Origin: a virus
Lineage: Duplodnaviria > Heunggongvirae > Uroviricota > Caudoviricetes
DNA length: 64,000 bases
Reading direction: 5' to 3' (one strand)
Virus record (IMG/VR): IMGVR_UViG_3300031772_000005
Part shown: positions 3,042 to 5,462 of the stretch, piece by piece
How the letters are laid out: each line of letters starts with the position of its first letter
How positions within the stretch are numbered: position 1 is the stretch's first letter
The notes under the pieces: model-generated
Seen by the model: only the letters and a program-made list of their open reading frames with translations
Told to the model about the DNA's origin: nothing
Databases searched by the model: none
Made by a program: the position numbers and the translations under genes

Positions 3042-4112
3042 ATGGCAACAAGCAGTAAAAAAGTAAAAGAAGAAGTAGAAGTAGCTGATTTAGGTACTCT
3101 TGAGAATAATACAGAATCTGTAAAGAATTTTGTATTCATGGAAAAAACAGTTAATCTGTTAGATATTGGAATGCAAGTAAATAAAAATGTAATTTTATAT
3201 GGACCAGGTGGCCACGGAAAATCAGAATTAACTCTTGCTTACTTTGCAGAAAACGGTATTACACCTTATGTAATTACTATGGGTACAGGTATGACAACTG
3301 ATAGATTATTTGGAGGATTAGATATTCCAACATTTAATGCTACAGGTAAAATTGAGTATTTGGTAGAAAACAGTTTCATGAATGCAGAATATGTAATTTT
3401 TGAAGAGTTATTTGATGCACCGGATTTTATCTTAGAGCAATTAAAAGATATTTTAAGTTCAGGTATATTCAGAAATGGTACTCAAATTGTTCCTATTAAA
3501 ACAAAGTTTATTGTTTGTTGTACTAATAGAACAAGAGAAGAATTCTCTAAGAATATGTCTCTTAAAGCATTAATGGAACGTTTTCCTTTAGAGCAAAATG
3601 TAATTTGGAATAACTATACAGATATTAGTTATAACAAGTTACTTGAGTCTAAATTTGGAGCAGGTAATGTAGATCCTGTTATTCCTTATATTCTTCAAGA
3701 ATATGCAAAAAATAGTATTGTTATCAGTCCTCGTGTAGCTGTTATTGCTTATACTGTATTTGATACTTGTGGTCCAACAGGATTACAATATATTGCAGAA
3801 TTTGCTAAAAAGCCTACATTAATAGCTGATGCTTTAAAGAAATTTGAAGCTTATGCATTATTAAAAACTCTTACAGAAACATTAGCTGAAAATTGTATTG
3901 AGTTAGATGCATCACAACTTGATTCACAAGAAGCATTAGAAGTTTTTGATAAAACTTTTATTACTTATACAGCTTCTGTACGTGAACTTAAATCTTTAAA
4001 AGTTGCTGATGAGTTAATTGATGTTCACTCAAAGTTAATGAAAGAACATGAAACAAAACATGCAGGTTTTAAGAAGAAAAGAATGATTGCTTCTACATTA
4101 ACTGAAATTTAA
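3042..4112 (+). CDS. AAA_5-type (MoxR/CbbQ/NorQ-like) ATPase
   Basis: Walker A GPGGHGKS; YVIFEELFDAPDFILEQLKDIL...IVPIKTKFIVCCTNRT resembles the AAA_5 sensor/Walker B region (VLLDEINRA...ATMNP pattern). Confidence 0.6.
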   Translation: MATSSKKVKEEVEVADLGTLENNTESVKNFVFMEKTVNLLDIGMQVNKNVILYGPGGHGKSELTLAYFAENGITPYVITMGTGMTTDRLFGGLDIPTFNATGKIEYLVENSFMNAEYVIFEELFDAPDFILEQLKDILSSGIFRNGTQIVPIKTKFIVCCTNRTREEFSKNMSLKALMERFPLEQNVIWNNYTDISYNKLLESKFGAGNVDPVIPYILQEYAKNSIVISPRVAVIAYTVFDTCGPTGLQYIAEFAKKPTLIADALKKFEAYALLKTLTETLAENCIELDASQLDSQEALEVFDKTFITYTASVRELKSLKVADELIDVHSKLMKEHETKHAGFKKKRMIASTLTEI

Positions 4113-4124
4113 AAATTAATTACT

Positions 4125-5462
4125 ATGGCAATTGGATATTCCAGTTATGGAAAAACTTCCTATCGGAAAAATAACGGATATTCTAGTTACGGTAAATCAT
4201 CTTGGAGTTATGACTGGGGTTCCTATTATGGGAGCTCCAGGCTTGACAATAATGATGACTTATTTGTAAAAGAATCTGAAAATTATATTACACCTACAGC
4301 AACTGAAATTGAAAGAAAAACAGGTCAATTTAAAAAGACTTCTGTTGATCAAATTAAAGAATTAGCTCTTGTATGTTATTATAAAATGATTGAAGAAAAG
4401 GATTATATTAATGATAAATTTGCTGATCCTGATTCTTTAAGTGATGAGAATAAAAATATATACGGTGTAAAGAAAGAATTTTATGATAAAATCTTTGAAA
4501 CTTACATCCCTGGATTCACTCCTTTAGAACAAGCTATTGCTATTTTCAATCAAATGAAAAATGAAGCTGATCAAAATAACGGAGAAATAGATGATCAAAT
4601 GGATAAAACTTCAGTTTTAGATTTTGATAGAGATTTATATACAGATCCGGATATTAATGAACAACTCATGATTAATGATGAAAATAAAGATAGAAAAATG
4701 AATATTATGAATCATTTATCTATCATTGGAGATCTTGGTAATGAGTTTAAAGTTGAAAAAGAAATATCTGAAAAAATTGTAAATAACTCAAACATTTATT
4801 CTAAAAAGATGATGAGAGATTATTCTCAATTAGCTAATGTAGATTTATATCAAAAGTTATTTCCTAACTTTAATATTAAGATGTTAACTAAAGATCTTGT
4901 AGTTAATGTACCTGTTGAAAGAAAAGAGCAAAAACAAAAAATTATTATTTTGTTAGACTTTTCAGGTAGTATGGAGCAAGATTTTAAACAAGATTGGGTT
5001 AATGCTTTACTTATTGATAGATTTAAATATGTCATGAGAGGTGAAGCTGAAGTATTTTTTAGTTATTTTGTATCTGATCCTGAAGCAATGCATTTTCAAC
5101 ATATTCATGATAGAGCTTCTGTAATTAAATTTTGGCAAACATTTTCTAATGATCCAAATGGTGGTACTACAAGAATTGAGGATATGGTAAGGAAAGTAAG
5201 TGATGATATAATCAACCATAAAAAGTTACATAACTTAAAGATTGATTTATCTGAAGAATTACCGGAAATCTTAATTATCAATGATGGTGAGGATCATGTA
5301 AGTGATAGACCTTTTCCTTATAAAGTAAATGCTGTATGTTTAGGTAATTTTAATGAAAAACTTAAAAACTTATGTGTTAATACAAAAGGTAAAAAGATTT
5401 CTGTTAGTTTTGATTCTAAAGTTGTAAGTTACTCAGAAGCAGGTGAAGAATATATTAATTGA
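4125..5462 (+). CDS. VWA (von Willebrand A) domain protein, partner of upstream AAA_5 ATPase
   Basis: MIDAS-like IIILLDFSGSM motif; Y/S/G-rich repeated N-terminus; sits immediately downstream of the AAA_5 ATPase, as in CbbQ/CbbO and NorQ/NorD pairs. Confidence 0.55.
   Translation: MAIGYSSYGKTSYRKNNGYSSYGKSSWSYDWGSYYGSSRLDNNDDLFVKESENYITPTATEIERKTGQFKKTSVDQIKELALVCYYKMIEEKDYINDKFADPDSLSDENKNIYGVKKEFYDKIFETYIPGFTPLEQAIAIFNQMKNEADQNNGEIDDQMDKTSVLDFDRDLYTDPDINEQLMINDENKDRKMNIMNHLSIIGDLGNEFKVEKEISEKIVNNSNIYSKKMMRDYSQLANVDLYQKLFPNFNIKMLTKDLVVNVPVERKEQKQKIIILLDFSGSMEQDFKQDWVNALLIDRFKYVMRGEAEVFFSYFVSDPEAMHFQHIHDRASVIKFWQTFSNDPNGGTTRIEDMVRKVSDDIINHKKLHNLKIDLSEELPEILIINDGEDHVSDRPFPYKVNAVCLGNFNEKLKNLCVNTKGKKISVSFDSKVVSYSEAGEEYIN

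Follow-up and report, generated by a model that had tools for sequence, protein, structure and literature searches.

What would a phage do with an ATP-driven protein-remodelling couple of its own? MoxR/VWA couples are widespread and, to our knowledge, their targets have been established for only a handful, with no function assigned to any that is borne by a phage. The question is raised by an uncultured phage of 28 % GC, for which a window of 64,000 nucleotides was analysed. A sequence-only reading had placed a MoxR-class ATPase gene, immediately followed by a VWA gene, at 3042-5462 within a phage replication module. Both open reading frames were found there on the + strand, and the surrounding replication/early module is recognizable from its ResIII helicase, DnaB, primase, PolA and exonuclease genes. 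The features of this locus, hereafter pair 1, are as follows.

2593-2985, + strand: FamB (orf130), a small helical protein of 130 aa with an LGIxxER motif, recognized by co-variation
3042-4112, + strand: ATPase 1, a MoxR-class (RavA-like) AAA+ protein of 356 aa
4125-5462, + strand: VWA protein of pair 1, 445 aa
4125-4244, + strand: its disordered N-terminal tail (aa 1-40, pLDDT < 50), rich in Tyr, Gly, Ser and Trp
4245-4931, + strand: conserved LFVK-x-P-NY-x-TPT motif and alpha-helical N-domain (aa ~41-269), from alignment A1
4932-5462, + strand: VWA domain with a complete MIDAS
4956-4970, + strand: MIDAS residues D278-x-S280-x-S282
5169-5171, + strand: MIDAS residue T349
5283-5285, + strand: MIDAS residue D387
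5460-5512, + strand: hairpin followed by a U-run, terminator-like by RNA folding and sequence reading
7643-8011, + strand: second copy (paralogue) of FamB, from tblastn

In this phage 12 nt separate the ATPase 1 stop from the start of the VWA ORF, and the terminator-like hairpin downstream (-19.5 kcal/mol, z = -6.3, with 0/200 shuffles folding equally well) probably marks the end of the pair 1 transcription unit. A scan for sigma-70-like sites counted fewer than in shuffled sequence, and a scan for tRNA genes gave none. The window also encodes four giant proteins, including one of 3734 aa, for which a LysM domain was the sole match in a Pfam search. Pair 1 lies on the strand opposite to these giant genes and the structural genes, and we infer its early expression from gene position and strand alone.

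The assignment of the ATPase to the MoxR class held up under profile searches. Its best Pfam match is bpMoxR PF20030 (52.6 bits against a cut-off of 27, E 4e-14), AAA_5 PF07728 is also above cut-off (37.2 bits, cut-off 22, E 3.6e-9), and both domains are found in 120/120 listed homologues. The Walker A (GPGGHGKSE), Walker B (VIFEE, with EE where DE is usual), sensor-1 TN (CCTN) and ALMERF arginine are invariant across 25 relatives, and these nucleotide-binding motifs align with their counterparts in RavA, which is the top match both by sequence and by fold. By its sequence, ATPase 1 belongs to the MoxR-class AAA+ ATPases (AAA_5, helix-2-insert clade), and the above-cut-off Pfam matches, the RavA match and the invariant motifs predict that it is active. 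The protein consists of an AAA+ core, a lid and, at aa 258-355, a C-terminal bundle of three helices; a LARA domain is absent. An invariant block at residues 79-115 aligns to the insert region of RavA, and a beta-hairpin at 142-151 stands ahead of the sensor-1 strand in the AF2 secondary structure (the AF2 models of the two pair 1 proteins reach pLDDT 67 and 73, a moderate confidence). ATPase 1 is not an orthologue of RavA, as with the NCBIfam equivalog NF010054 it reaches 30.7 bits where 681 are required, with the alignment limited to residues 47-181. The pair had also been called CbbQ/NorQ-CbbO/NorD-like, which is right as to class, but the ATPase has neither a CbbQ_C domain nor its closest similarity to CbbQ/NorQ, RavA being nearest.

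That a VWA protein with a MIDAS motif directly follows the ATPase is likewise no accidental match. Across 38 sequences of 21-55 % identity only seven columns are invariant, and D278, S280, S282, T349 and D387 are among them; the family profile matches the VWA domain of CLCA1 (E 4.9e-4) with DxSGS, GGT and DG aligned, and a Rossmann-like VWA fold was found. In profile searches the VWA protein by itself matches no Pfam VWA model above cut-off (VWA_CoxE 16.1 bits, cut-off 26.4) and no NCBIfam model. Its relatives match VWA_2, VWA and VWA_CoxE, with VWA_2 matched by 22/38 diverged relatives; since only relatives pass the Pfam cut-offs, membership of the VWA protein rests on transitive and structural evidence. 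With the fold confirmed and all five coordinating residues invariant, the MIDAS is predicted to be functional. The protein ends at aa 445, straight after the VWA domain, and a C-terminal beta-hairpin in the AF2 model (433-444) is a candidate pore finger. Upstream, the N-domain is modelled as helices over residues 59-245 (pLDDT ~70-80) and is present in cellular homologues too (profile coverage 3-400 of 420); a search for solved structures covering it gave no match, profile A1 returning an insignificant Rpn10 alone. The tail, by contrast, with its four [GS]Y[GS] motifs, keeps its composition in 127 family members (median 51 % Y+G+S+W, 14 % Tyr) and is missing in the CPR, Pirellulaceae and Bdellovibrionales homologues.

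To survey co-occurrence in related phages, as the earlier reading had suggested, we examined viral loci anchored on either gene. The ATPase and VWA genes adjoin in 71/73 ATPase-anchored loci, and the ATPase lies directly 5' of the VWA gene in 47/47 VWA-anchored loci. Adjacency persists at ATPase identities as low as 29 %. Translational coupling is suggested by the gaps, most of which measure -1 to +3 nt. The pairwise identities of ATPase and VWA protein are strongly correlated (r = 0.97, Mantel 0/999), as expected of any two linked genes, and the correlation reflects co-inheritance, not physical interaction. The family comprises about 470 clusters at 50 % identity; its viral hosts are uncultured phages of 100-155 kb, and blastn and tblastn searches of 50,697 cultured-phage records gave no match to pair 1. 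Cellular copies occur on Pirellulaceae chromosomes, where the homologues are concentrated, as well as in Bdellovibrionota and on a 623-kb Paceibacterota contig (CPR). Clustering of neighbours within 3-5 kb at 73 viral and 26 cellular loci revealed no universal third gene.

The distribution of pair 1 among close relatives shows that it is accessory, not core. In 18 syntenic relatives with DnaB 75-80 % identical, exactly orf130 (2593-2985), the ATPase gene and the VWA gene are missing, while the helicase, ClpS and orf86 are retained on one flank and DnaB on the other; these absences were judged from the syntenic interval and from IMG/VR pattern scans. ClpS, kept where pair 1 is missing, was rejected as a member of the module. 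FamB, on the other hand, tracks the ATPase and VWA genes exactly, being present in L002, L009, L010 and L011 and gone from the 18 relatives that keep the flanking genes, and it is likely the third member of an accessory cassette. Searches of Pfam and PHROG gave it no assignment. The FamB proteins of relatives match this window by tblastn at both 2653-2865 and 7658-7921. A small protein of FamB or of a further family, FamA, lies 5' of the ATPase in 36/73 loci, and homology between the two families is weakly supported by sequence comparison (hhalign probability 15 %, E 0.0017; one bridging HMM match at 3.4e-4).

A second ATPase/VWA pair of the same type had been proposed at 21150-24774. Both partners are present there, but the VWA gene is split by an intron and the gene order is reversed.

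21150-21373, + strand: exon 1 of the DUF2201_N metallopeptidase-VWA gene of pair 2, ending ...KHEL (Pfam DUF2201_N 3e-5)
21374-22481, + strand: predicted group I intron, 1108 nt (Rfam Intron_gpI)
21596-22432, + strand: LAGLIDADG homing-endonuclease ORF inside the intron (LAGLIDADG_3 2.5e-7, phrog_4645 1.7e-48)
22482-23580, + strand: exon 2, with the remaining peptidase and the DUF2201 VWA-like domain (DUF2201 1e-17, phrog_1314 4.6e-50)
23593-24774, + strand: pair 2 ATPase (ATPase 2), AAA_5/midasin-like, 393 aa (phrog_1297 1e-33)

The Rfam Intron_gpI model matches at 22315-22470 (E 1.6e-6) and 21421-21579 (E 0.028), both under the gathering score, and the boundaries have a U before the 5' splice site and a G as the last intron base. 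Exons 1 and 2 are contiguous in 75/78 relatives, and conceptual splicing restores HELLH and gives a protein colinear with an intact homologue, to which it is 63 % identical; the VWA protein of pair 2 is one gene split by a predicted group I intron. The two pairs are not of the same type. The ATPase 2 family profile matches the AAA modules of Midasin (4e-10), with weak matches to AAA_3 and AAA_5, and distant homologues in S-TIM5 and Schitoviridae carry a MoxR-like ATPase annotation. Beyond the P-loop, ATPases 1 and 2 show no relationship (hhalign probability 0.5 %), a value on which a recent duplication was rejected as their origin. The N-terminal HExxH metallopeptidase is found only in pair 2, the pair 1 VWA protein having no DUF2201_N or DUF2201 match, and the VWA gene precedes the ATPase gene in pair 2, the reverse of pair 1. 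Nor is pair 2 unusual: it occurs at no fewer than 512 loci in IMG/VR and in all close relatives for which sufficient DNA is available, pairs of its type have been described in jumbo phages (PMC7824862), and at least two other contigs have both pairs. Pair 1 is rarer, at 51-73 IMG/VR loci.

Comparison with characterized systems makes pair 1 a further example of the known MoxR/VWA chaperone type. With RavA-ViaA it shares the gene order, ATPase then VWA, and a partner of similar total size with a helical N-terminal region and a C-terminal VWA/MIDAS domain, and the triple-helical domain of RavA may correspond to the C-terminal helical bundle of ATPase 1 (269 aligned residues). RavA, however, is ~498 aa long with its LARA domain, for which the 356 aa of ATPase 1 leave no room, and pair 1 differs further in its phage-specific Tyr/Gly/Ser tail on the VWA protein and in lacking a lysine decarboxylase or respiratory-complex context. 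NorQ-NorD and CbbQ-CbbO similarly combine a single-module MoxR ATPase with an adaptor ending in VWA/MIDAS. They provide a template in which the MIDAS binds a carboxylate on the target while a finger of the VWA domain enters the ring pore, and the NorQD work proposes this finger as general to MoxR/VWA couples (PMC9976466, PMC13036017). The MoxR-vWA-beta-propeller systems (Kaur et al., 2020) share a bpMoxR-type ATPase (PF20030, 4e-14), a long alpha-helical region N-terminal to the vWA, and Planctomycetes, a phylum named there, as the source of cellular pair 1 homologues. In contrast to these systems, the vWA protein of pair 1 is without a beta-propeller, no third TPR/beta-propeller component adjoins it in the window, no conserved third gene emerged at the 73 viral and 26 cellular loci, the P-loop is the standard GPGGHGKS as opposed to GxxxTAKS, and the MIDAS is fully intact. 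The DUF2201_N/DUF2201 pair of jumbo phages, Schitoviridae and S-TIM5, to which pair 2 belongs, also sets an AAA_5-type ATPase beside a VWA-type protein and has a proposed chaperone role, but differs from pair 1 in its peptidase domain, opposite order, other ATPase subfamily and core distribution. Acidianus two-tailed virus offers a viral MoxR/VWA couple in p618 (MoxR) and p892 (VWA), the latter among the top viral fold matches of the pair 1 VWA model; this virus infects archaea, however, its p892 has twice the length, and the couple functions in extracellular tail development, whereas the evidence for pair 1 points away from morphogenesis.

The reading that we consider probable is that pair 1 forms a self-contained MoxR/VWA machine for remodelling proteins and is borne, as an optional cassette of three genes, in an early region that is hypervariable. 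This builds on direct observation of the domain identities, the intact catalytic and MIDAS residues, the linkage, the accessory distribution and the cellular homologues. The 356-aa ATPase would form a hexameric ring, like RavA and other MoxR proteins, on which one VWA protein would dock in a geometry presumed by analogy to NorQ-NorD and CbbQ-CbbO. A Mg2+ bound at the MIDAS of this adaptor would grip a carboxylate of the target (Asp, Glu or the C-terminus), with specificity or hold conferred by the helical N-domain and the phage-specific Tyr/Gly/Ser tail. ATP hydrolysis would then be passed on via the adaptor, pulling or twisting the target and altering its conformation, assembly state or cofactor site. 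Since replication and assembly of the same virion proceed in close relatives that lack the cassette, we infer that the target is most likely a host protein or another accessory protein of the phage, for example the small protein that co-varies with the pair; the replication machinery, capsid or giant proteins are unlikely targets. It is conceivable, although doubtful, that the three-gene cassette is more specifically a phage adaptation of a bacterial MoxR/VWA module for early extraction or disassembly of a host complex, in takeover or counter-defence, with the FUS-like [G/S]Y[G/S] tail as a new functional element. The motor might use this aromatic low-complexity tail, confined to the viral lineage, as a grip, or the tail might associate with itself or bind the target.

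Three other functions deserve weighing against a general remodelling machine. Pair 1 might be a counter-defence or conflict module that dismantles or jams a host immune complex or excludes rival phages. The best Pfam match of its ATPase, bpMoxR, is a family established on conflict systems of the MoxR-vWA-beta-propeller type in Bacteroidetes, Planctomycetes and others (PMC7159879), its cellular homologues centre on Pirellulaceae, and it comes and goes as an indel within a hypervariable early region, a patchiness typical of genes for host interaction. PADLOC, however, yields only generic P-loop matches, neither the beta-propeller fusion that defines such systems nor their third component of the TPR/beta-propeller kind is present, and the cellular pairs lack conserved neighbours and show no visible placement in defence islands, so that we regard this function as unlikely. 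Less likely again is a chaperone for metal-cofactor insertion of the NorQD, CoxDE or CobST kind, which would open a phage or host metalloenzyme for metal loading. Several characterized MoxR/VWA couples do act in this way (PMC9976466, PMC13036017), and weak matches to phrog_249 'porphyrin biosynthesis' (4e-4) and, in the CPR homologue, to a model of a putative cobaltochelatase (1.7e-4) point in this direction. These chelatase-type matches nevertheless fall far under curated cut-offs and amount to generic AAA/VWA similarity; no candidate metalloenzyme co-varies with pair 1 at viral, cellular or syntenic loci, and RavA, the nearest relative, is no metal insertase.

Virion protein remodelling and activation of the giant proteins, both raised by the sequence-only reading, would make pair 1 a chaperone of virion assembly or giant-protein maturation. 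There is viral precedent, as such a role has been suggested for p618/p892 of ATV and for the peptidase-vWA pair that jumbo phages carry (PMC7824862); moreover, ATV ORF892 is among the top BFVD structural matches of the VWA model (E 2.3e-6), and the window does encode four giant proteins. But pair 1 sits in the replication/early block, opposite in strand to the giant and structural genes, and the same pair is carried by non-viral chromosomes. Pair 1 is also missing from the 18 syntenic close relatives, one of which, contig 3300042691_007361 (106.8 kb), has pair 2 and a full-length 3734-aa giant-protein homologue. The retention of the giant protein without pair 1 disfavours a part for pair 1 in giant-protein or virion maturation, which we consider highly improbable.

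Taken together, the presence/absence variants among syntenic phages offer a clean comparative handle on the role of a MoxR/VWA remodeller. If its target is a host defence or metabolic complex, an ATP-driven 'extractor' would join the tools by which phages take over their hosts.

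The ATPase/VWA pair at 3042-5462 (pair 1) lies in a window of 28 % GC, where the + strand carries a replication block (ResIII/DEAD helicase, DnaB, primase, PolA and exonuclease) and the - strand carries four giant ORFs of 1020-3734 aa. The principal features are:

3042-4112, + strand, ORF of the MoxR-class ATPase of pair 1 (ATPase 1), 356 aa
4125-5462, + strand, ORF of the VWA protein of pair 1, 445 aa
4125-4244, FUS-like low-complexity tail (aa 1-40 of the VWA protein), with an acidic patch after it
31715-57990, - strand, four consecutive giant ORFs of 2020, 3734, 1978 and 1020 aa

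The two genes of pair 1 are 12 nt apart. A/T-only spacers at 3020-3041, 4113-4124 and 5500-5513 hold no Shine-Dalgarno-like purine run, so that the ATPase, the VWA gene and the next gene all lack one, which may be a clue to translation initiation in the host of this phage.

ATPase 1 matches the Pfam families bpMoxR (E 4e-14) and AAA_5 (E 3.6e-9), each above the curated cut-off, and the one solved protein with a significant match to it is E. coli RavA (1e-7 with the single sequence, 5e-8 with the family profile). An AF2 model (pLDDT 73) shows the AAA+ core and lid, with a three-helix bundle at the C-terminus. Across 25 relatives there is no variation in Walker A (GPGGHGKSE), Walker B (VIFEE), sensor 1, the ALMERF arginine or the long block TMGTGMTTDRLFGGLDIP, and this block aligns to the helix-2-insert region of RavA. 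Orthology with RavA was rejected (NCBIfam equivalog score of 30.7 bits vs. a cut-off of 681), and ATPase 1, unlike RavA, does not have the length for a LARA domain. About one third of the ATPase relatives (P0160, P0174, P0186 and others) have a ~95-aa N-terminal extension (YRFKTKEEF...), which in other loci is a separate ORF just upstream of the ATPase (L158:2711-3001) and has no counterpart in the window.

The MIDAS motif that the sequence-only reading had assigned to the VWA protein was retested because the protein alone gave only a sub-threshold Pfam match, to VWA_CoxE. A profile of 38 family sequences matches the VWA domain of CLCA1 (E 4.9e-4) with DxSGS, GGT and DGxD aligned, and 22 of these 38 diverged relatives match Pfam VWA_2. 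Only seven columns are invariant across the 38 (21-55 % identity), five of which are the MIDAS residues D278, S280, S282, T349 and D387. Given the profile match, the VWA_2 matches and these invariant residues, the motif is functional and not a chance match, as originally read. The VWA domain is preceded by a helical domain (aa ~59-245) for which no counterpart was found among solved structures, and this in turn by a nearly invariant LFVK-P-NY-TPT motif. The protein begins with a disordered tail of 40-65 residues rich in Tyr, Gly, Ser and Trp, which in the window includes four [GS]Y[GS] triplets and whose composition is kept in the viral family (median 51 % Y+G+S+W, 127 members). The homologues in CPR bacteria, Pirellulaceae and Bdellovibrionales lack this tail, and cellular VWA homologues have either the NY-TPT motif or unrelated sequence at their start.

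Nothing resembling pair 1 was found at the DNA or protein level among 50,697 cultured-phage records. Metagenomes yielded 596 relatives of the VWA protein and 815 of ATPase 1, many on contigs of 105-128 kb, and an exhaustive profile search gave 470 clusters at 50 % identity. The ATPase is immediately upstream in all 47 VWA-anchored IMG/VR loci with upstream DNA, and a VWA-family gene comes next in 71 of 73 ATPase-anchored loci, mostly with a gap of -1 to +3 nt; the adjacency is kept even at 29-40 % ATPase identity, on contigs of 100-155 kb. One of the two remaining loci is a contig end, and the other is a rare variant (L143:4059-4355) in which a 98-aa remnant ORF, keeping only a Tyr/Asp-rich N-terminus, stands in place of the VWA gene after the ATPase. 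The pairwise identities of ATPase and VWA protein are closely correlated (r = 0.97; Mantel 0/999), which shows that the two are inherited as a unit and does not in itself prove contact. Directly 3' of the VWA stop codon, a strong hairpin (-19.5 kcal/mol, z = -6.3) leads into a U-run, and among the neighbours in 73 loci no third gene is conserved across all viral loci.

In a scan that represented each prokaryotic species by one genome, the same pair turned up in several cellular lineages, including complete chromosomes of Pirellulaceae (Novipirellula, Stieleria), Bdellovibrionota MAGs and CPR bacteria, among them a 623-kb Paceibacterota contig. The Pirellulaceae ATPases (L217-L233) are 690-720 aa long with two bpMoxR/AAA_5 stretches; one of them (L226:4836-6995), for example, precedes a VWA partner of 492 aa that has no Pfam match. 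The protein after the ATPase in cellular loci (450-490 aa) matches nearly the whole VWA-family profile, including the helical N-domain. In the cellular loci, too, the ATPase and VWA genes are the only conserved ones, and the module is thus an autonomous two-gene system common to cells and viruses.

To sample the nearest relatives independently of pair 1, we used DnaB as anchor with 10-kb flanks. In eighteen loci both flanks are retained, with helicase, ClpS and orf86 on the upstream side and the genes preceding DnaB on the downstream side, and exactly three window genes are absent: the ATPase and VWA genes of pair 1 and orf130 (2593-2985). Four other relatives have all three together. Beyond ClpS-orf86, all relatives show a mosaic of variable small genes, and the stretch from there to DnaB (2578-15069, compared with L246-L300) forms a hypervariable island of 13 kb in the window and 4-8 kb in relatives, its small-gene content differing relative by relative. 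The product of orf130 belongs to FamB, a small-protein family with an LGIxxER motif and no family assignment; a paralogous copy lies at 7643-8011, and the 2593-2985 copy co-varies with the ATPase/VWA pair. In 36 of 73 loci the ATPase has FamB or the possibly related FamA (150-165 aa, preceding the ATPase in another clade) on its upstream side, homology between the two being only weakly supported. The homologue of ClpS, the ClpAP adaptor for N-degrons, is encoded at 2095-2346 (Pfam ClpS 9e-14) and is conserved beside the helicase in every close relative, with or without pair 1. The gene at 6242-7183, whose SPFH/Band 7 family product has a hydrophobic stretch at its N-terminus, is accessory too, with 87 % identical copies in two loci (L009, L010) and none in the 18 syntenic relatives.

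The second pair, described in the sequence-only reading as being of the same type, comprises:

21150-21380 and 22483-23580, halves of the VWA gene (DUF2201_N metallopeptidase plus DUF2201 VWA-like)
21374-22481, insert in this gene, 1108 nt, with a LAGLIDADG homing-endonuclease ORF
23593-24774, midasin-like ATPase (ATPase 2), adjoining the VWA gene and matching midasin AAA modules

An ATPase/VWA-like pair is indeed present, but the likeness ends there, since ATPase 2 is akin to ATPase 1 only in the P-loop and the VWA partner bears a metallopeptidase domain. The halves are one gene, contiguous in 75 of 78 relatives. The insert has two Rfam group I intron matches (E 1.6e-6 and 0.028, each below the gathering score), a U before the 5' splice site and a terminal G; conceptual splicing restores HELLH and colinearity with an intact 420-aa homologue (63 % identity). 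By these signatures, the insert is a predicted group I intron interrupting the HExxH zinc motif (HEL/LH). The same intron occurs in L065 (endonuclease 86 % identical), and L060 and L098 have insertions at another position. Extra DNA of ~0.8 kb between the VWA gene and the ATPase in L059, L067, L112, L117, L121, L126 and L131 may be another mobile insertion. A GIY-YIG homing-endonuclease ORF (57990-58631, - strand; phrog_314 1e-32) lies between two giant ORFs, and a 141-aa ORF after the primase (19979-20404, + strand) has a positional counterpart in L320 annotated SegE_GIY-YIG. Annotations of pairs of the second type exist for Schitoviridae and cyanophage S-TIM5, and such pairs have been described in jumbo phages, with a proposed role in assembly and processing (PMC7824862). 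They occupy at least 512 IMG/VR loci vs. 51-73 for pair 1, and both pairs share one contig in the window, IMGVR_UViG_3300027924_000346 and Logan SRR8204328_1030.

Among the roles initially suggested for pair 1 was activation of the giant proteins. These gave no Pfam match besides a LysM domain in the first, and related contigs encode full-length homologues of the 3734-aa protein (48-78 % identity). One such homologue is encoded, together with pair 2, by a relative without the cassette (IMGVR_UViG_3300042691_007361, 106.8 kb), and pair 2 is present in every DnaB-anchored locus with enough downstream DNA. Because of these cassette-less relatives, pair 1 is dispensable for replication, for pair 2 and for making the giant protein, and the activation role is disfavoured. 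A candidate anti-defence module is plausible, although PADLOC is silent on pair 1 and the beta-propeller components that define bpMoxR conflict systems (PMC7159879) are missing from it.

The pair-1 finding is thus real and better defined than before, and belongs to a MoxR/VWA kind already known. In NorQD, the ring pore is plugged by a VWA "finger" and the MIDAS engages carboxylates on the surface of the target, a binding mode that the authors suggest is general for MoxR/VWA couples (PMC9976466, PMC13036017). By analogy with RavA-ViaA, CbbQO and especially NorQD (PMC9976466, PMC13036017), an ATPase hexamer would be capped by one VWA adaptor, whose MIDAS would grip a carboxylate of the target, and ATP hydrolysis would act through this adaptor to remodel the target. 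The indel-like pattern of an accessory element within a hypervariable early region does not point to the virion, whose remodelling had been suggested earlier; it makes a host factor or another accessory protein of the phage the more likely target.
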